DNA of 61,393 nt, the filler included, from Basidiobolus ranarum (lineage: Eukaryota), in assembly GCA_040143965.1 (NCBI GenBank). It is 19 parts of 19 records of this genome, joined end to end, with 100 filler letters (N's around TTAATTAATTAA, not from the genome) between each part and the next. Parts side by side here need not be neighbours in the genome. Positions count along the whole stretch, not along the records: positions 51,818 to 54,945 come from JASJQH010002711.1; 18 more parts are not named here. One strand, written 5' to 3'. The position numbers and the translations under genes are program-made. The notes beneath the pieces were generated by a model, which had not been told where the DNA came from, made no database searches, and worked only from the letters and a program-made list of their open reading frames with translations. Shown here in pieces: positions 9,980 through 54,945 of this stretch. How positions within the stretch are numbered: position 1 is the first letter of the stretch; the number at the start of each line of letters is the position of its first letter.

Positions 9980-12620
9980 GACTGAGGTCTGATCAAGGAA
10001 TACATGGGCTTATATAGATATTGCGAGGTGAAACATAAAGTAACAAATAGAGAATATACCATGGTAAGTTCAAAAGTTGGGGTGTTGGGGACTACAAGGA
10101 TCAATACAAAGAGGGATGATGTAAGGATGATCAGGTGACCTTCAATGGAAGGTCTTGGTGGAAGTACACTATGTGTGGGATGACATGATTAGTTAGGTTT
10201 CATGGCATGTTCTAAAGAACATGACTTCCATATGAGGTAATCTGGATGAACTAACACAAGATTGCCAAGAAGGGATGGCACAGCAGATATGATGTCATAG
10301 TCTAATATTATAAGAGTTTTATTTGCAGTGGATCAGCATGCCAAGATCAGAACCATGAAGTGACCCCTTCTTTAGTGATGGCTTCCAGACATTATAGCAC
10401 CAGGTTTCTCTGGGTAGGCTTCATGAAACTCCTGGCAAAGTTCCTTGGAATTGGAAAGATTTCTTGCTGGCTCCCATGATTGATCATTTGTTTAGTGTCC
10501 CTTCAAGTCCACTAAATATTGCAATTTATGTCAATAAATTCTGGAATCTAGAATTTTGCTAACTTCACATTGAGGGTGTTCTTCCACTTGGATTGCTGGG
10601 GGTGGGTCAATGGATTAGCCCTGGAAGGTGTTTCTGGCATGTGGCTCTAGGAGAGACACATGTAATACAGTATGGACTTTGAAATGGGCTGGGAGTTCAA
10701 GGCAGAAACCTATGGAATTGATTGGCTTAATAATCCTAAAAGGCCTTGGTCTTTTATGATCAAGTTTATCAAAAGGTCTAGTGGTTTTGATATTTTTCTG
10801 CAATAGCCAAACATAATCTCCTGGCTTGATAACTGGGTTAGGCTTTCTTTTCGTATCAGCAAAGTCCTTGTGTTGTGATTGAGCATGCTCCAACTCATAT
10901 GTTAATTGTTTATAGATGTCCTTAAGGAAAGTCACATGGTCTGAGGCAGCAGGGTAAGATAGATTGGATAATGGGTGAATTGTGAAACAAGGATGGAATT
11001 CTTAGTTTGCAAAGAAAGGAGTTTGTTTTGTTGAGTTGTGATAAGGGTTGTCATTAGCAAATACAGCAAGAGGCAAGAGTTGTGTCTAATTAGTTGGATT
11101 ATAGTTGTTAGGGCATTGCAAAGTTTGTTCCAAAACTTGATTGACTCATTCTGTTTGGCCATCAGATTGGGGATGGAAGGCAGTGGAGAGATTGTCAGAG
11201 ATACCTAAGGTGTGAAGAAGATGTTTCCAGAATTGCATCAATTGACTTAATGCAAGGCACAAAGTAGGCCTTCTTTGTTAGATGGTTAAAAATTACCAGA
11301 TTTGAATCATATTTGGTAGACAAGGGTAGATCAGTTATGAAATTCAGGGATATGGAATTTAACTGCTGATCAGGAAATAGAAGTGGCTATAGGTGGCCAT
11401 AGGGCTGATGTCTTGGAGCCTTCACTTGAGCACAAGTATCATAGGTGGAAAAATAAGTCTTTGCAAATGCAAATATTTTGGGCAAACAATAATTCCTGGA
11501 TGCCAACATATATGATTTGGCAACACCAAAGTGTCCTGCCAGTGGTGAGTCATGTCTTTCCTGCATCTTTTTGAGTCTGGAAGTGTGGTCTGAAATGTAA
11601 AGGTCCTTCTTATACAATAAGAGATCATTTATCATAGAGAAACAGCAGTACATATTCAAGCTTGAGAGGCCTTTGGGTGTTTCCTGGCTTTCTTGATTGA
11701 TATTACCAATGGGTCTTCATATTCAAGTTTGCAGATGTCTTCATGGAATGTGCTTGAACTAGGTAGAAAAGGGTAGTTGCACTAGTTTGAAGTTGGTGAG
11801 GCTTCAGTAAGGAAGTATTTTGTTGGCCAAAGGCCTCATCCCCCTCTTTAGGCTGATATTCTGCTCTACATGATTAGTCATCAGGTTTACCTTGCTGACA
11901 ACCTGGTCAATATAAAATCACCAAATCAAAACTGGCAAGAAATAACAACTATCTTGGTTGATGCCAGTTGAGGACTTTGGTTGTGCTAATATACTGAAGA
12001 TTCATATAAACACAACAAACTGTGATATTGCAATTTGCTCCATCCAAGTATTGTTGCCATTGTTCAAATGCAGCAATAATAGCTAATAGTTCCTTGTCAT
12101 AGATGTCATAGTTGATTTCTGCTGCAGAGAATTTTCTTGAGTAAAAGGCAACAGGGAGCAGTAAGTTGTCATCATCAAACTGTGGTAGTACTGCTCCTAG
12201 AGCAAAGTTTGATGCATCAGTTTTAACAATAAATGGCTTGTCTAGCTTGGGGTGTGCAACCATTGGTGCTGAGGTAAAAGCATTCTTTAAAGTCACAAAT
12301 GCTTGTTGGCCAGATGGGTTCCAGTGGAATGGGAGTTGTTTCTTTGTAAGGTTTGTAAATGGAGCAGATGGTGTGGAGTAGTGCTTGACAAACCAATGGT
12401 AAAAGTTTGCAAATTGAAGGAACGATTGGACATCCTTCATATTCTTGGGAGTATCTCAAGACAGAACAGATTCAACCTTCTTAGGTTCTTTGGAGATGCC
12501 TGATGGGCTGATGTTATATCCAAGGAATTCAACAGAAGCTTGATCAAATTCACATTTCTCAAGTTTGGCATAGTGACCAGAGGTTTTCACCTTTCAAGGA
12601 CTTGGGAAACATGAATATTT
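9980..12620 (-). mobile_element. Degenerate Ty3/Gypsy chromovirus retrotransposon: end of RT, RNase H, integrase, chromodomain, 3' LTR
   Basis: KTDASNFALGAVL and NYDIYDKELLAI (RNase H); HDSPLAGHFG (integrase zinc finger); VHTVLHVSLLEP; SWEPARNL chromodomain near 10470; polypurine tract at ~10364-10374; many stops and frameshifts. Confidence 0.93.
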
Positions 12621-26127: not shown

Positions 26128-27828
26128 AGATATTACGTCAACCATTGCTACCGGTTTGTCGTATGTTCCTCCATGAAAAATTTCTGTTCTGCCTCCTATT
26201 GTACTTTGTCAAATTGCCAAATCTTGTTTGGGATTTAAAATTGGCAATAACTTTTGAACGTCTTCTGTGACATCTATGTGATTTTTCAGAGATTTATATG
26301 CCAAACTGGGAAGAGTTAATTCTTTGTCTATATCCATCTTAAGAATATTAAAAAATATGTTTCTGACTTTGTGATAAACTTTGGCCAATATTTTAGTATC
26401 AGAAGTTGTATACTTTTTTATTTTGTTTTTATTTTTTTCGAGAAAAGCCAATATATTTCCTTCAAGATATGCAGACTGTACTTTGGCGTGATTGAAGTCT
26501 TCCTTTTTGGTAGCACAATTAAATTCTTCTGCAACTTTAGCCAATTTTCTCCGCAAAAATCTAAATAAGTCTTTGACCCTAAACCCTAAAACAGACGTGA
26601 ATAGTATTGCATTATTGGCAAATATTTCTCCCCTGTGCCAACAATTGTGTTTATGGGCTGCATTAATTAATAGATAATTGTCAAACTTAGAATTATTATA
26701 TCCAATGAGATAATTTACTATTTTTTTTTGGGTACCTATACTTTCTAAATAATTCATCAGCTCGCCTTCGACATCATGAATATTTGGATCTCCCATTTTA
26801 AACTTTTCGTCAACAATTTCACCATTTTCGTTGGTAACAGTAATGCTATATGCATAAGGCAGCATTTCCATTGTATCTTTGTGCCATACAGTCTCAAAAT
26901 CAAAAAAGTAATAAAACCTCTGTTCTATTCCTTTGAGATTATTTAATGGAACTTCGTCATCTTCACCATAATTTGGGTTTGGATTTTGATAATCAAATAA
27001 TCGCAGTTTTGTCCTACCCGTAATAACATAATAAAGCTCATCTAATAGTAACAAAGAAATTGGTGATTTACCGACACCCCTCAGAAGTTTGGGAATAAAT
27101 TGGTTTTTTCTTGATCCCGGAACTAACTCGTCGGCATAAACGTTAATTTTGACCTTGAGAAATCTTTCTATATAAAACACGTCTTTGATGGAAATGGGTC
27201 CATTGTAATTTTTAACATGTTCCCGAAGCCTCTTGATATCTAAGGGACCAAGAAAATAACTCAAGGCATCAAAAAAGCAGTCGTTGTTATTAGTATTTGA
27301 TGACATATCCAATATATCAAAGCATTTAGACGATATAACATTTTTGTGAATGTTTTTACAACCCCCAGATAATATTTTTTTTGTATGAATTGTGAATAAT
27401 CCATAATTTAATGCACATGTATTCACAATATCGCCTGCACCATCCGATCCTGGAAATAATTCTTCTCCTAAACCTTGTTCATGGTTGGCAATTTTGTCAA
27501 AAATATACTTCCGACCTTTCTGAAGAATTTTATGCATTTTGATAGATAAAAAACTTGTTTTATTAAAATCGGAAACGAATCCCAGTGTAACATTTGTTAT
27601 AGTATATGTATTCATATTTGATATCATCTGACATGCCTCATTGACATTATCTATAAAATCAGAATCGGTTACTGGCGGAAAACATCCCTCTTTAAGTTTG
27701 AAATTAAATTTGGTGGGTCCTTGAACAGTTTTTCCTACAACATAAATATAAATGTCATTGAATTGATGTATAGGTAAAGGGGGAGGTGTGTAATTAGGTA
27801 AATTTTGGGCCCAAATATCATCTCCCAT
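26128..27828 (-). pseudogene. polB: Protein-primed family B DNA polymerase (Polinton/Maverick- or linear-plasmid-like) with N-terminal OTU-like domain; disrupted
   Basis: ExoI FFDFETV, ExoII IGYNNSKFDNYLL, ExoIII YTTSDTKIL, TLPSLAY. Reading through the TGA at 26209-26211 gives QSTIGGRTEIF...VAMVDVIS (GGRxE motif and start of motif A). NNDCFFDAL lies upstream. Confidence 0.88.
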
Positions 27829-27851
27829 TATTGGCAATCAATAGTTAATAC

Positions 27852-32936: not shown

Positions 32937-35557
32937 GCTTTATTTTGGGACAATATATAATTATCTCACAAAGCTATTCACAACTCCACTATTCTAAAGT
33001 TCCTCCAAACAGCCCATATTTTCCCAATAGGTTATGAGCCCGATGTTCTAACCTGCTCGGCATGACAGAAACCACTACTACCACTTTTATTAACTCAAGT
33101 GTTCTAAAGCTTGATGGAGAAAATTAAAATATCTGGAAGTTCAAGATGCAAATCATGCTGGAAGACAGGGAGCTTTTGGATGTAGTCTCTGGAGATGAAA
33201 ATGAACCTTCTGACCCTTCTTTACTGGACGCTTAAAAGAAAAGAGACAAGACAGCCTTTAAAGTCATTTGTCAAAGTTTGAAGGATTCACAACTTATGAA
33301 TATTCAATATGCAAAGACTTCCCATCAAGCTTGGACTGTATTGGAAGAGTGCTATGAAGCAAAGAGTCTAGCTAACAGACTCTTTCTCAGACAAAAATTC
33401 TTCAATATAAAGATGGAAAAGTCTGAAAGCATGGTTACTCATATTGCAAATGTGATATCTTTGGCAAAATAACTGGAAAATATTGGTGCAACTTTACAGG
33501 AAGAAGATGTCATTATGACTCTTCTAAGTAGTCTACCAGAACAGTATTCAAACTTGGTCACAGCTTGGGAAGCAAGATCTGACAAGTTTTCTTTGGAGTT
33601 TGTGGTGGCAAGGCTAATGGATCAACATCTCAGAAGTAAGAATTTGGAAAAAAAATCTGAGGAAGTAGCCCTTTTTGTAGCTGGAAAATGTAGCTTTGGC
33701 AAGTACAAAGGTTACAAAAGAAGGAAACCAGGTTTATGCTATGGTTGTAACAATCTAGGACAGCAGATAAAAGATTATAAATAAAGAAATTACAATAAAA
33801 ATGAGAAGTCAGAACAAGCAAATCAGGTTTCAGCCAAAGAGGAAGTTTTATTCATTTCTGTCCTATCAATGACCTTTGAATAAGACTGTAGGTCGTGGTA
33901 TATTGAATCTGGAGCCTCTCAACATTTCTCTAATCAAAAAAACTGGTTGAAGACACTCAAAACCAACATAAACAAGAAGGTTTATATGGGAGATGACCGG
34001 CTGCTAGAAGCTCTGGGAGTGGGAGAAATTGAAGTGGATCTTGGTGGCATCTCTGGAGACATGTATTTGACACTGAAAAGTGTGCTATATGTGCCTGGGA
34101 TAGCAAAAAATTTGTTATCAGTGAGTAAAGCTACATCGGAGCAATACAGCTCTAATTTTGATCAAAATGGCGGTACAATCAGGGATCAAAAAGGGAAGAA
34201 CACAGCTTCTGGAGCTAAGTAAAATAACTTATATAAACTTCATTATATTAGGCCAATATATGAACAAGTTAATACTGCCACAGCTAAAGAGATAGACTGG
34301 AAAATCTGGCATAGGAGATTGGGTCATCTAGGAACTGAAAATATGAGATATTTAAGTAAAAACAAGATGGATATGGGACTAAATTTTGTAATTCCACCAG
34401 ATCTGGAGCTATGTGAAGGTTACCTATATGGCAGGCAACATAGACAGCCGTTTGTGGGCTCTGGAATGAGCAAAATGGATCAAAAATTGGGCCTGATACA
34501 TTCAGATCTGTGTGGCCCATTGCAGACAAAGTCCTTAGGTGGAAAAAGGTATTTTATGACCTTTATTGATGATAAGACAAAGTATATTTGGGTGTACCTT
34601 CTGGCCAGTAAGGATGAAGCCCTTGTTACCTTCAAGAAATTCAAAGCAATGGTGGAGACTGAAACAGGTCTAAAGATTAAGATTATCCTTACTAATACTG
34701 TAGGGGAATACACCTCAAAACTCTTCTGTAACTTCTGCTCAATGCAACATATAAAGCAGCAGACTACAGTGCCATATTCTTCACAGCAGAATGGAGTAGC
34801 AGATTGTGCAAACAGATCAATAATGGAAAAAGCAAGATTGATGCTTCATGATCAAGATTTACCAGAACTGCTCTGGGCCAAATTGGTAGCAACTGCAGTA
34901 TATATGAGGAATAAATGTTGTTCTAGGTCTATATTGGCTATCACACCTTATCAAGCTTTGTTTGGAAGTAAACCTGATGTGGCTTATCTCAGAGTTTTTG
35001 GAAGTACCACATATTCAATGATTCCAGACCAGAAGAGATCAACATTAGACCAAAAATAACAGAAATGTCTTTTTTTTGGCTACTGTGATGGAATAAAAGG
35101 GTACAGGCCATAAGACACTGCAAATCAGAGGCTAATCAAGTCAAGTGATGTGCAATTTGTGGAAGAAGAAAAATTTTCAATCACAACAATGCAGGATCAA
35201 GAAAAACAACCAAAAATTGATGAAAATCTACTTTCTTTCACCAGATTTTGATCAGTGAGAAAAACATGGAAAATCTCTCACCTGCATTCTCCTCAAGCAA
35301 GCCTGAGGTAGTTTCATTGCCTAAATTGGTACCTGAAGCTGTAGTGCCAATTTCCCGTCTTAGGAGATCCAATTGGATGAGACCTCCACCTGATTACCAC
35401 TCTCACACCAGCCAAAAGGAACCTAGTGCTATTTAGCCTTTTTTTGATGAGCTCAAACCAGTACAAGAGGCTATGGAGAGTTCTAACACAAAGTTTTGGA
35501 GTGCTGCAATGGCAGAGGAGTATCTGTCACTCATGTTTAACCAAAGTTAGACTTTGG
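32937..35557 (+). mobile_element. Degenerate Ty1/Copia element: LTR end, PBS, gag, protease, integrase
   Basis: PBS GGTTATGAGCCC at ~33030; gag MTLLSSLPEQY; protease WYIESGASQH; integrase LIHSDLCGP, FIDDKTKY, QQNGVAD; stops and frameshifts. Confidence 0.94.
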
Positions 35558-48588: not shown

Positions 48589-50578
48589 CATGGCAGCATC
48601 ACATACAACAAAGGAGGCTATGTGGTTAAGGAAACTGTTCAAAGACTTGGGCATTATTCAAAGTTCACCCACCATAATTTTCAAGGATAATCAAAGTTGC
48701 ATTTCTTTAGCTAAAAATCCTAAATTTCATGCTAGAAGTAAGCACATTGATATTCAACATCACTTTGTTAGGGAAGCTATTGAGAATAAGCACATCCAAC
48801 TACAGTACTGTCCAACTGAGGACATGATTGCTGACATCCTTACCAAACCATTACCCAAGCCTAAATTTGAAGAATTAAGATTTAAGTTAGGATTAAGATA
48901 TATGAATATTTAGTTGAGTGGGAGTGTTGAAGTTTATTGTCTTTATCATATTTATTATCTCTATCTTTATACACCTAACTATTTCATATATCACATATAA
49001 GTTAGTTAACATTACTTAGTCAAATATCACTTAGCTGAAAATTGGAACATATATTATATATATATGTGAATAATGTGAGAATTAGCAATTCCATATTGGA
49101 AATTTCAAACTTGTCCAAATAGCCCCAAAGTAACCTCATTTTACTCCCACAGATGTTCTGAACACAACCCCAGTGTTGGTTTTCTGTATTTCCACCAAAA
49201 AGTATAAATGCTTTATATCTGGACAATAAACAGTTATCTCACAAAGCTATTCACAACTCCACTTTTCCAAAGTTCCTCCAAACAGCCCATATTTTTGCAA
49301 TATTTTTTGGGCCTGCAGATCCATACAGATATATTGAGCATATCTATCCCTCTGAATCAATCTAAATATACCTCAGACACTCTCAGACATTACAGGATGG
49401 AGAATAGTAAGCCAGTAGCAACTCCCATGGATCCAGGTGTGGACTAGTCGAAAATCCCATCAAAAATGATGAAAACCAGCCAAATATGGCTCAAAATATG
49501 TCATGTGAAAGCCCTGAATTCCCTTATCAATCTATGGTAGGTAGCTTGATCTATGCTATGACTGGAACCCACCCAGATATCTCTTGTTCAGTAGGAGTAG
49601 TTACCCAACATGTTCAAAACCCAGGATCTGAGCATTATGCAGCAGTTAAGTAGATGTTCAGATATTTGAAGAGGACAATTTAACCTGGGATGAAGATATT
49701 TATATTCTTATGAAAATAAGGATCTACTTGGGTTTAGTGAAGCAGATTGGGGATCTGATATTGATGACAGAAGATCTATCACTGAACATTCCTTTCTCTA
49801 TAGTGAAGCAGCCATATCTTGGAATAGCAAGAAACAACCCACTGTAGCACTTTCAACAAATGAATTAGAGTACATGGCAGCATCACATTCAACAAAGGAG
49901 GCTATGTGGTTAAGGAGACTATTCAAAGACTTGGGCATTTTTCAAAGTTCACCCACAATAAATTTCAAGAATAAACAGAGTTGTATTTCTTTAGCTAAAA
50001 ATCCCAAATTTCATGCTAGAAGTAAGCACATTGACATTCAACATCACTTTGTCAGGGAAGATACTGAGAATAAGCACATCCAATTACAGTACTGTCCAAC
50101 TGGGGACATGATGGCTGATATCTTACCAAAACATTATCAAAGCCAAATTTGAAGAATTAATATTTAACTCAGGATTAAGATATATGAATATTTGGTTGAG
50201 TGGGAGTGTTGAAGTTTATTGTCTTTATCATATTTGTTATCTCTATCTTAATACACCTAAATATTTCATATATCACATATAAGTTAGTTAACAATACTTA
50301 GTCAAATATCACTTAGCTGCAAATTGGAACATGTATTATATATATGTGAATAATGTGAGAATTAGCAATTCCATATTGAAAATTTCAAACTCATCCAAAT
50401 TGCCCCAAAGATAGCCCATTTTACTCCCATAGATTTTCTGAACACAGCCCCAGTGTTAGTTTTCTGTATTTCCACCAAAATGTATAAAGGCTTCATTTCT
50501 GGACAACAAATAATTATCTCACAAAGCTATTTAAAACTCCCCTGTTCTAATGTTCCTCCAAACAACCCATACTTTCTC
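48589..50578 (+). mobile_element. Ty1/Copia 3' ends in tandem: RNase H, LTR (~48926-49295), RT/RNase H, LTR (~50207-50578)
   Basis: DNQSCISLAKNPKFHARSKHIDIQHHFVRE-type motif twice; PPT TTGAGTGGGAG before each TGTTGAAG LTR. Confidence 0.93.
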
Positions 50579-51819
50579 ACTAGTTATGGCTTCTTTGTTT
50601 TGTTTGAAATAAAGATTTCACCTGTTGGTGATTGTCTCCTCCTGGCCTAAACAGGTCTTAGTAAGATCAACCTTTGTGTTTACTTTCATCTTGGCTTCTT
50701 TATTTATTTGTGTTGTATGACTTGAGATAAATAAAGATTAAACCTTCTGGTGCTTTTCATCACCTTAATTCTTTGTTTTGTTTGAAATAAAGATTTCATC
50801 TTTTGGTGACTGTCTCCCCCTAACCATAACTCTGTACTCTCTGTCTCTGACTTCCCTGACCCATGCTGTGATTTTTTTTTCACCTCACCTCAGGGATATT
50901 CATCCATAAGTTGCTGGATTGTGGATGGATGTTCTTTCCTTTACTTTCTCTCTCTGATTTGCCACCCACCCTCCCCATCTTCTCTCTCTTCTTCTATATG
51001 ACTCTTGCTTTGTTTATGCTTACTTGGGAAGGAATAAAAGGAACCTTCCCATCTCTTACTTCTCAGCTTACAGCAACTTATCAATATTAGCAACTCTCAG
51101 GCCTAGCTTACTGGGAACTCTCTACTTTGGCTCTATCCCTTCTGGGAAACTCTACTCTGGCCCCATCACTTCTGGAATACTTAACTCTTAGCTCCATCCT
51201 ATCTGGAATACTGTTAGGCCTAGCTTACTAGGAAACTTAGCTCTGTCAACATCTTGACTTTATCTTTGAATATTATATTCTAACTTGGCTTATTTATTTA
51301 TTGACTTTGTTTAAATCAATAAATATATTTAACACCTTCTGGTGCCTATAATCCCCTAACTCTAAAATATTACTTCAGTGAACAAGCATTTGAACATCAG
51401 TCTCCACTAGACTTTGTGATTGAACATCTATGGGAAATAGCAAACTCTAAGGTTTTCACCATACTCAGTGTTTCCATACTTCATTATTTTCTTTATATTT
51501 CAACTTCAACTTTTATTCCTAGTAACCCATACCTAAGTACATATAAAGAAAAACTCCAGGTTCAGGAGAGTTCTTCGGTCCAGAAAAACATTGATATTGA
51601 GCTATTACATTATACTAATATAATGAATTAGGTCTTTGACTTGGACAACTGAATGAAATCTTGTAAAGATACACCTTGTTGTAACCCTATATATACTAAG
51701 GCACTAGTGATGTGTATNNNNNNNNNNNNNNNNNNNNNNNNNNNNNNNNNNNNNNNNNNNNTTAATTAATTAANNNNNNNNNNNNNNNNNNNNNNNNNNN
51801 NNNNNNNNNNNNNNNNNGT

Positions 51820-52056
51820 GGCTGGGATGAAACTGATCACTCTGATGGTGATGGGCGTCAATACGACCAAGACGAGTATGATAATGAGTACGAAAGAGGA
51901 ATTTCTCACAGAAATGGACAGCAGAACTATCCTCGCTCTCGCTTTGGCCGCCAATATGAGCAAGATGAGTATGATAACGAATACGAAAGAGGAGTTTCCC
52001 GCAGAAACGGGCAACATAACTACCCTCGTTCTCGCTTCGGTCGTCAATATGAATAA
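51820..52056 (+). CDS. C-terminus of a protein with 31-aa tandem repeats (possible peptide precursor); 5' end truncated
   Basis: Frame not in the ORF track: GWDETDHSDGD-GRQYDQDEYDNEYERGISHRNGQQNYPRSRF-GRQYEQDEYDNEYERGVSRRNGQHNYPRSRF-GRQYE*. Differences between the 93-bp units are mostly synonymous in this frame. Confidence 0.8.
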   Translation, partial: GWDETDHSDGDGRQYDQDEYDNEYERGISHRNGQQNYPRSRFGRQYEQDEYDNEYERGVSRRNGQHNYPRSRFGRQYE

Positions 52057-52526
52057 GTTTTCGAAATCAAATGGGCACGATGAATAGTTAAAAAAAGTAT
52101 CTTCAGACTAAATGTCAGACAATCATGTATAACGAAAGTATTTACTAATAAAGTTTATTCTTTACGACATCTACTGAAATCTTGGTAAAGAAAATATTGG
52201 GATCGTTAGCTCCATATGGCTGAGTTGAATTTACACTCAATATATAGCTTCGGGTCATATAGAAGAAATTTCTGTAGTGTATTTATACGACTGTAAATCA
52301 ATTATTGCCTAAATTTTCTTATAGGAGCTTCAACTAAACGTATTTACATTGCTACCTTACTTACTGTACAGCTCTCTATGTCGAGCAAACAATCCAGATT
52401 GCTCTAAACACTTGAGATTCATAAACATTAGCCATGATAATATCAACACAGGGACAAATTGCAAATTCGGATGTTTACTAATAAATTTCTGAATATATAT
52501 GGTTACTATCTAATGAGGGACTTCCA

Positions 52527-53395
52527 CTATATCTTGTAAGCACTAAGGCGTTCCTTAACATAGGCACCAATCACTGGGTCATTTTCGATATTTTTGCACA
52601 GTTTGTTAAAGGGCTCAAGATCGAAAATCTTACGAACGTAAAGGTGAGTAATTTGAATCATGGCATAGGCATGAATATCAACAAGAGATAGCTTGGAGCC
52701 AACATAATAACCATTGGCATTTTTAGTAAGCTGAGCTCCATGATATTTGATGATATGCTCGGCAGCAGTCTCAAAATCTGCTAGGGCAACTTCTTTAATT
52801 TCATCAGTTTTGGCATGTTTGGATTTAATCAGCGCATTGAGCATGGTTTTCCAGCCCTCAGTGAAACTGTCAATTGTACCAGCTTCTCGCTCATTGGAAC
52901 CAAGAAGATCTATTCATGAATTAGTAACGTAAAAAGGATCGGATTCTAAAATTGTTCTAGGGATCTTACCAAATTTACGAGCAAGATAACGTTGAATAGC
53001 ATGACTCTCACAAAGTTGATATTCCTGCTCAGATTAATCGTTAGCTAAATATATTTAAAGTGTCCAATGATATTATAATATATATACTCACCGAACCATC
53101 CTGGTCGCGCTCAGTAAGGACAGGAAGAAAACCGAAAGGAGTGGTGAGCTTCTCCTCTTGCCAGTTCTATAAACAGAGATTATCAATGGGTGTATAGGAT
53201 TATGCATTCAAATAGAGAACTTACAGTAGGATTGCGTTCAGACCATTCAACCTGTAAATCAATCGTTGGTAAGTAAGATTGCAATGTACGTGGACCGTTC
53301 TAAGTCCTTACCTTCCCGTATTCAAGAAGTATACGAATGGTCTCGGAAAGCCCTGGAGAAGGGAAGTAGAATAGTTCGTAATGTGTAGCAGACAT
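52527..53395 (-). CDS. Glutathione S-transferase (sigma-like), multi-exon
   Basis: YELFYF..PGLSETIRILLEY, TPFGFLPVL, LCESHAIQRYLARKF, YYVGSKLSLVDI. Confidence 0.9.
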
Positions 53396-54252
53396 GTGGA
53401 GGATTAATGCTTGTCATTTTAAAGTTTTCTCTTTATTTATATTTGGTAAATTCCCCTTTTCCCCGTCGAAATATTTGCCACTATCGACATATAGCGTAAT
53501 TTATCTTAAAATAGTAGCCAATGAAAATGCATCAATTGTGGATTAGTAAGCAGAAGCAACAGTTTGACAAGACTAGGGGTGATGGATTAGTAAGTAAAGC
53601 TGGCTAGTGATAGGAGTCATTGTTGTGTCCATTCATTAGTGTTACTGGAATGAGTCGAGGTAAGGGTTAGGGTTAGGGCTAATAAGTATACTCATGTCCT
53701 CTCAATGGTCTTGTTATTGAAGAGCATTCATTTCCCTCGTCACACATCTTATAGACGATTTATCTCAAGCCTACGAAATGATTCGTTAAAACCCAACCTT
53801 ATTTCATTTTAGATAAATAGGTTAAGAAAATGAATAACCCGTTTAGAATTCATAAGATTTTGATACTGCAGCCAATGATAGCCATCTTCAGTAAACAAGA
53901 AAAAATATCCATACACTTCCTCTTAATTCGGTGAGATATTCAACATCAAATGGATTCATTGTATTTCACCTCCTTCACTAGGTATCTTAGATTTTAAAGT
54001 CCTCTAAGTAGACTAACCCTACAACTAAAGTACCCTTTTGAAAATTAAACCTAAAATATCCACTTCCAAGGCATAACTTCCTGTTGCGTTATTCTACTCA
54101 TTCATTCGCCAATCTTTGCTAAAATTGTTAACTCGACGTAACGCACACTGACTCCATTTTCAAATACTCTAGCCGTAGTAAGAAAACCAAACGTGAGTTC
54201 TCGAATAGCTTTCTCTACGGCTAAATAACTCTACACTATCAACGTATCTGTT

Positions 54253-54642
54253 ATGGGAAGTGATTTTGAGAAATCCTTAGAAACATTCTATGAAAATTCA
54301 CTTGGTGGTACAGCTGGTAAAGTACTCTTTACTATATTAGTACTCGTTGTTGGAGGACTATGTGAAATTGGAGGAGGCTGGTTAGTATGGCAAGTATTAA
54401 GAGTTGGTATGTCTCCTTGGATTTTAATTCCAGGTAGCGTTATATTAGTAATATATGGACTTCTTATGTCATTACAAATGATGCAGTTTTCTAGAGCATT
54501 TGCGACCTATGGCGGTGTATTCATTTTCTTATCTCTGGTTTGGGGATGGGTTGTAGATAAACAGGTCCCTGATAAATGGGATTGTATAGGTGCTGCCATA
54601 GCATTGGTTGGTGCTGGAGTTATAGCATTTGTACCACGTTAA
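54253..54642 (+). CDS. ynfA: YnfA/UPF0060 family small membrane protein (SMR/DMT superfamily)
   Basis: GLCEIGGGWLVW, F.RAFATYGGVFI, WGWVVD...PD.WD.IGA.I.L.G, terminal PR; four TM helices; intronless. Confidence 0.9.
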   Translation: MGSDFEKSLETFYENSLGGTAGKVLFTILVLVVGGLCEIGGGWLVWQVLRVGMSPWILIPGSVILVIYGLLMSLQMMQFSRAFATYGGVFIFLSLVWGWVVDKQVPDKWDCIGAAIALVGAGVIAFVPR

Positions 54643-54816
54643 TAAATATTTTCCACTAAACCATCATTTTGCTTTCTTTACTTTGCCAAAGCTCAATTTT
54701 GATTCTTTTAAATTATTTCTTTGCCAGTAACTATTTTTTGTCTCTGTATTGTGACAGGTGATCGTGTATGTTGTTCAAATGTGGATAGTCCCTGAACCTT
54801 GGAGTTGCTTGTCTAT

Positions 54817-54945
54817 GTTGAAATTAGCATTGCTTAAACACCTATATAGTCATATATAGCTTAGTACTTAGTTATCTTATAACTCACTAAGATATTATCA
54901 ATTATTCTCAATTGGAATTTACTTTGAATATTTTTACCAACTTAG
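54817..54945 (+). mobile_element. Copia-type LTR fragment
   Basis: Same family as 6264 and 61063. Confidence 0.75.

Follow-up and report, generated by a model that had tools for sequence, protein, structure and literature searches.

The repeat-coding segment at positions 51,820 to 52,056 of the window, by which we mean the whole stretch of 61,393 nucleotides of Basidiobolus ranarum DNA that was analysed, is the last 78 codons of a B. ranarum gene running off the 5′ end of its contig. Judged by sequence comparison, its translation (P0001) is an unannotated fourth member of an orphan family of proteins with 31-residue units, seen so far only in B. ranarum, and alignment of the units shows that purifying selection holds the whole unit, in both of its halves. 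With a probability of roughly 45%, we favour the explanation that the product is a secreted polyampholyte, which would act intact or loosely trimmed through multivalent binding and would not be a hormone-like precursor cut at fixed sites; this mechanism is proposed from composition alone. The result adds one truncated, unannotated member to a tiny orphan B. ranarum family of repeat proteins that are predicted to be disordered. Taken alone it is modest, because fungi commonly have small repeat proteins restricted to one lineage, many of which are secreted.

The setting of the segment has to be read with the construction of the window in mind. The sequence TTAATTAATTAA occurs 18 times at a spacing of about 3.2 kb (0.05 occurrences expected), and each joint consists of 44 N, this sequence and another 44 N. 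Cutting at the N-runs yielded 19 contigs of 3,148 to 3,123 bp, placed strictly longest first, which are unrelated small pieces of a fragmented assembly. Apparent "upstream" context across any N-run is meaningless, and features spanning one are artefacts of concatenation. The DNA left of 51,718 belongs to another contig and carries no information on the repeat gene. On several contigs, ORFs resembling fragments of retrotransposon pol genes (reverse transcriptase/RNase H, integrase) were recognised from their translations only, at 11,949-12,455 (-), 34,223-35,059 (+) and 49,694-50,152 (+), which is consistent with a repeat-rich genome assembling into short contigs. Furthermore, a 542-aa ORF at 26,209-27,837 (-), on the contig at 25,948-29,084, matches Pfam DNA_pol_B_2 ("organellar and viral" family B polymerase) with an E-value of 4.5e-10. 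This contig drops in part to 26-32% G+C; a linear plasmid, a Polinton-like element and a mitochondrial insert are all candidate explanations.

Tandem Repeats Finder placed the repeat at 51,852-52,052, with a period of 93, 2.2 copies, 82% matches and no indels. Together with the translation, this confirmed the 93-bp units and the residues that had been read from them in the first-pass annotation, with HR in unit 1 and RR in unit 2 (Table 1). That annotation had also taken mostly synonymous differences as the mark of this frame, and the counts agree: comparison of the two full units reveals differences at 17 of their 93 bases, 15 of which fall at codon position 3 (frame from 51,820), and the changes comprise 13 synonymous and 4 non-synonymous ones, the latter all conservative (D/E, I/V, H/R and Q/H). 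A rough Nei-Gojobori estimate for unit 1 against unit 2 gave pS 0.73, pN 0.05 and dN/dS of approximately 0.02. Divergence dominated in this way by synonymous changes establishes a real coding frame under purifying selection and rules out a chance pattern. To judge from the same comparison, the duplication of the unit is old at the DNA level, with the protein sequence of the whole unit held. A six-frame comparison found one other frame rich in synonymous changes, a minus frame with 10 synonymous and 5 non-synonymous changes; it was rejected as the coding frame, being closed by stops, with a sole ORF of 30 aa at 51,927-52,019. Two further frames are open across the repeat region, as had been noted before; both lie on the plus strand, in agreement with the ORF listing.

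The frame itself contains no Met and reaches the first bases of the contig (51,818). No AG dinucleotide occurs between 51,818 and unit 1, which rules out a start restored within the contig through a splice acceptor. Given both absences, the repeat gene must continue past the contig end, and the N-terminus is missing, in line with the earlier reading. Downstream, an AATAAA may serve as a putative polyadenylation signal.

Table 1. Features of the repeat gene, its contig and the joints of the window, with the three related B. ranarum proteins.
Feature	Position	Strand	Description or evidence
Artificial joint	51718..51817	.	44 N, TTAATTAATTAA, 44 N; different contig left of 51718
Further linkers	3193, 6441, ... 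58215		Along 1-61393
Contig with repeat gene	51818-54945		3128 bp; repeat gene at its very start
5′-truncated, unannotated gene, terminal coding part	51820..52056	+	78 codons + TAA; translation P0001; translation, synonymous-dominated divergence, 59-76% identity to three annotated B. ranarum proteins
Non-repeat acidic lead-in	51820..51852	+	11 codons, GWDETDHSDGD; reaches contig start
Repeat unit 1	51853..51945	+	31 aa, GRQYDQDEYDNEYER then GISHRNGQQNYPRSRF; Tandem Repeats Finder, translation
Repeat unit 2	51946..52038	+	31 aa, GRQYEQDEYDNEYER then GVSRRNGQHNYPRSRF; sole dibasic pair (RR, residues 61-62) of fragment
Third-unit start	52039..52056	+	Five codons GRQYE, then TAA 52054-52056; translation
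AATAAA	52147..52152	+	About 90 nt past stop; read from sequence
P0002			K7432_017272; 91 aa; E 8e-21
P0003			K7432_000974; 85 aa; E 4e-14
P0004			K7432_017677; 62 aa, partial, start missing; E 2e-12

Relatives of P0001 were sought with an exhaustive phmmer search of 1.84 billion representative proteins (E ≤ 0.001, no length limit). Four matches were returned, three of which are real; all three are B. ranarum proteins in single-member clusters (P0002, P0003 and P0004), with 59-76% identity to P0001. The fourth match, a 1525-aa protein (E 9e-5), is an unrelated repeat protein and was set aside. The same search contained no protein identical to P0001. A profile search with the four sequences recovered the same three proteins among 1098 candidates and no new member. 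A word-indexed search with P0001 alone gave 9 candidates, none with E ≤ 0.01, although the collection contains the three relatives, and this miss is therefore ascribed to the limited sensitivity of the tool and not to an absence of relatives. In metagenomes, a scan by protein profile produced 592 pattern matches, none of them confirmed, and a scan by a degenerate DNA pattern of the conserved junction produced none. Within the window, the other 18 contigs yielded neither a further copy nor an N-terminal exon in tblastn with all four proteins. In Pfam, P0001 reached only chance matches below threshold (Phage_HCP1, 16.5 bits where 27 are required) and P0002-P0004 had no match at all, so that none of these three is joined to a Pfam domain. 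There were no matches in a PDB sequence search, no usable feature match for P0001 or P0003 in the ESM Atlas, and nothing relevant in a literature search for the junction strings.

We then compared the six full 31-residue units found across P0001-P0004. Nine residues are invariant (G1, R2, Y4, E12, Y13, R20, G22, Q23 and N25); they are spread over both halves of the unit, and both P0001 units carry all of them. Averaged over pairs of units, identity amounts to 0.69 in positions 1-15, 0.57 in 16-31 and 0.63 in 21-31. Conservation is thus at least as high in the "acidic spacer" of the first-pass annotation (1-15) as in the supposed "peptide" (21-31). Each unit has 5-9 acidic residues, which all fall within positions 5-14 in five of the six units, and eight of the nine do so in the sixth (the second unit of P0003). 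The 4-7 basic residues of a unit occupy position 2 and positions from about 14 on, where the first in the P0001 units is R15. The remainder outside the acidic block combines Arg with G/N/Q/P and a Tyr-Pro-Arg-Ser-Arg-aromatic tail. Net charge per unit ranges from -2 to +1; with the acidic block at 5-14 and Arg elsewhere, the unit is near charge-neutral yet strongly charge-segregated.

The putative processing sites are more variable. The four proteins contain 1, 0, 2 and 2 dibasic pairs, in that order (P0002 having none), which lie at four unit positions (19-20, 20-21, 2-3 and 14-15), and the site upstream of the supposed peptide reads HR, RR, GR, RR (shifted), RR (shifted) and CR in the six units. 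The alignment thus shows no conservation of a dibasic site across the family, and the RR upstream of the peptide, earlier taken for a processing site, is not conserved either. The last residue is F in two units, Y in two, Q in one and H in one and is among the least conserved positions; in the relatives, RF is mostly RY or degenerate. Five occurrences of the motif R.R[FY]G[KR] are spread over the four proteins, filling five of nine unit junctions, among them both of those in P0001. It appeared in 0.29% of unit shuffles and was absent from 20,963 other ORF residues of the window; composition alone therefore does not produce it, although the motif was picked post hoc. The first-pass interpretation is partly supported: its frame, its repeat layout and the missing N-terminus stand, whereas RF-G-R, whose lack of conservation had been named there as a refuting condition, varies in the last residue and is kept at only some of the junctions.

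The family proteins are predicted to be disordered. AlphaFold2 run on the four-sequence alignment gave a mean pLDDT of 52 and no secondary structure, and the Atlas model of P0003 has a pLDDT of 0.40, at which structure matches drawn from it are meaningless. As for export, P0003 begins with an Arg or short positive stretch followed by approximately 12-17 hydrophobic residues (Kyte-Doolittle 9-residue means of 0.7-1.4 over the first 13 windows), and its small residues G14 and A16 fit the -3/-1 rule by eye. Its UniRef name is "Secreted protein", which presumably stems from automatic signal prediction. The N-terminus of P0002 is hydrophilic, and the 11-residue lead-in of P0001 is unlike the start of P0003. 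Secretion of the family is plausible, and for P0001 it would follow by likeness to P0003, a single gene model.

Charge-patterned disordered proteins rich in Tyr and Arg are "sticker and spacer" polyampholytes. The B. ranarum units resemble them in keeping acidic and basic blocks apart, in having invariant Tyr and Arg, in being predicted to be disordered and in lacking Cys or hydrophobic residues; the likeness lies in composition only. Under the explanation that we favour, the protein would enter the secretory pathway, by analogy with P0003, and outside the cell would act whole or after no more than loose trimming. Its acidic and basic blocks, together with Tyr and Arg, would make multivalent contacts with other copies of itself or with charged polymers of wall, mucus or surfaces. 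We prefer this polyampholyte reading to that of a peptide precursor because conservation in the supposed spacer matches or exceeds that in the supposed peptide and because the cleavage sites wander. Nevertheless, proteolytic processing would also fit the conserved single Arg residues (R2, R15, R20, R28 and R30) and the aromatic-Gly-Arg sequence that recurs at the junctions.

Cleavage into peptides is possible but lacks support. In its most explicit form, the family would encode a kexin-processed multi-peptide (KEP-like) precursor, in which cuts at basic residues free cationic NGQxNYPRSR[FY] peptides, with or without the Gly, and the acidic Tyr-rich halves are charge-neutralising pro-pieces. 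We regard this as somewhat unlikely, although both P0001 units do show the succession of acidic block, basic site, short basic peptide and aromatic-Gly-Arg, the recurrence of the post hoc junction motif fits it, and an acidic half that masks a cationic peptide would be expected to leave units approximately balanced in charge. Basidiobolus is, moreover, rich in Kex2-processed repeat proteins: B. meristosporus is the fungus richest in KEPs, with 43, and KEPs of type S-3 are Basidiobolus-specific and described as Y- and D-rich (Umemura 2020, PMC7329392), their entries being those of type 158 in Table S2 of that survey (ORX64445.1, ORX75521.1 and ORX75524.1, for example). The B. ranarum family is likewise small, fungal and Tyr/Asp-rich, with tandem short repeats, basic residues at unit borders and one paralogue with a signal-like start; it differs from KEPs in that its dibasic sites vary in position and presence. 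As defined in that survey, a KEP has a SignalP signal and at least three repeats of at least 8 aa between KR, KK, RK or RR, with a unit of no more than 100 aa (PMC7329392). The unit found here measures 31 aa (93 bp), but the visible part of P0001 offers 2.2 units and one dibasic pair and so falls short of three repeats between such sites; its N-terminal part lies beyond the contig end, where further units could be encoded. The complete lack of such pairs in P0002, the shifting upstream site, the identity of the spacer relative to the peptide and the poorly conserved last residue likewise count against this form of processing, and no B. meristosporus protein was found at E ≤ 0.001 in the exhaustive phmmer search. 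A precursor of a dikaritin-type RiPP, another comparison drawn in the first-pass annotation, is unlikely, because none of the 185 Zoopagomycota KEPs has a DUF3328 neighbour in Table 1 of PMC7329392. Precursors of the ustiloxin type are there described as repeat proteins with Tyr-containing cores that take the secretory route (PMC7329392). The B. ranarum family shares with these dikaritins the repeat architecture with Tyr-containing units, but ustiloxin-type precursors need DUF3328/UstYa genes nearby, and the 3.1-kb contig, too short for a judgement on this point, holds only GST and UPF0060 genes besides the repeat gene; their cores are short and KR-flanked, unlike the B. ranarum units. Mimicry of a host neuropeptide of the RFamide kind, on which the first reading had speculated, is very unlikely. 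Here, a gut zygomycete would secrete a pro-protein cut to Pro-Arg-Ser-Arg-Phe/Tyr(-Gly) peptides copying the NPF/NPY/PYY C-terminus, a scenario to which we give hardly any weight, and peptides ending in R-x-R-F/Y(-amide) would engage NPF/NPY/RFamide-type receptors of insect, amphibian or reptile carriers, which we hold to be just as improbable. If true, receptors for feeding or gut motility in the carrier insects, frogs or reptiles would be the targets of these peptides. Defined peptides, if found, would to our knowledge be the first peptide-hormone-like product of this fungal lineage. Receptors of the NPY, NPF and RFamide types generally need the amide. PAM, the amidating enzyme (PHM plus PAL), is missing throughout fungi according to a review (PMC6529398). 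The layout does recall RFamide/NPF/NPY precursors, with a basic residue, a short peptide ending in R-x-R-F/Y, Gly, a basic residue and acidic stretches between copies. PRSRF-G-R in P0001 and PRSRY-G-R in the paralogues match the NPF/NPY C-terminal signature, given as "RxRFamide or GRxRYamide" in PMC4195672, where mouse PYY ends in TRQRYa; the F/Y alternation in the B. ranarum units also mirrors the NPF/NPY family. By sequence, this signature is a closer likeness to the junction than plain "RFamide", over four or five residues only. However, these 4-5 residues lie inside an Arg/Tyr-rich repeat, the motif is kept at only five of nine junctions, and the exhaustive phmmer search (1.84 billion proteins) matched no animal protein, so that no similarity to any animal precursor was detected. 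In the B. ranarum family, unlike in those precursors, the terminal aromatic and the upstream site vary, and conservation of the acidic block equals that of the "peptide"; mimicry would depend, furthermore, on both secretion and cleavage, each of them putative. Whichever way the product is handled, strong selection on the whole unit, the predicted disorder and the R-x-R-F/Y-Gly-Arg junction together make it a well-defined target for peptidomics in an animal-gut fungus.

Two further explanations concern the gene rather than its product's processing. The repeats could form the C-terminal, disordered tail of some larger protein, possibly an intracellular one, the body of which would be encoded past the end of the contig. 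Disorder rich in Tyr, Arg, Gly, Gln and Asn is common in intracellular low-complexity tails, and P0001 has such a composition together with predicted disorder; its frame runs open, without a Met, up to where the contig begins, and the acidic lead-in is neither a repeat unit nor a signal peptide. The three annotated paralogues, however, are only 62-91 aa long and none is attached to a domain, and the exhaustive search contained no longer protein with these units, its 1525-aa match being unrelated. We therefore consider a tail of this kind unlikely. Alternatively, P0001 might be a decaying or non-functional copy of a repeat-bearing gene family. P0002 and P0004 have Cys in place of Arg (GCQY, SCRS and RSCH), as C-to-T decay at CGN codons would produce, and each ends in a unit that is degenerate or truncated; by their sequences, this suggests that both are partly decaying copies. 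The contigs bearing three of the four copies measure only 1.9-3.1 kb, and P0001 itself is unannotated, with no identical protein in the exhaustive search. For P0001, on the other hand, the 78-codon frame has no stop or frameshift, and its units keep 27 of 31 residues at a pS of 0.73, for which long purifying selection is needed, so that decay of this copy appears quite improbable.

Beside the repeat gene, the contig carries two other genes. A sigma-like GST gene at 52,527-53,400 (-), with at least two short introns, is 99% identical to B. ranarum K7432_016439; its C-terminal exon (52,527-52,913, -) matches Pfam GST_C_3. The gene is convergent with the repeat gene, with approximately 470 bp between the two stop codons, and at least three B. 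ranarum paralogues show 52-53% identity to it. Further along, a 137-aa ORF at 54,229-54,642 (+) matches the full profile of Pfam UPF0060 (YnfA family) with an E-value of 5e-33. UPF0060 is a family of small membrane proteins found mainly in bacteria, and the ORF may for this reason belong to the genes of bacterial type known from Basidiobolus.
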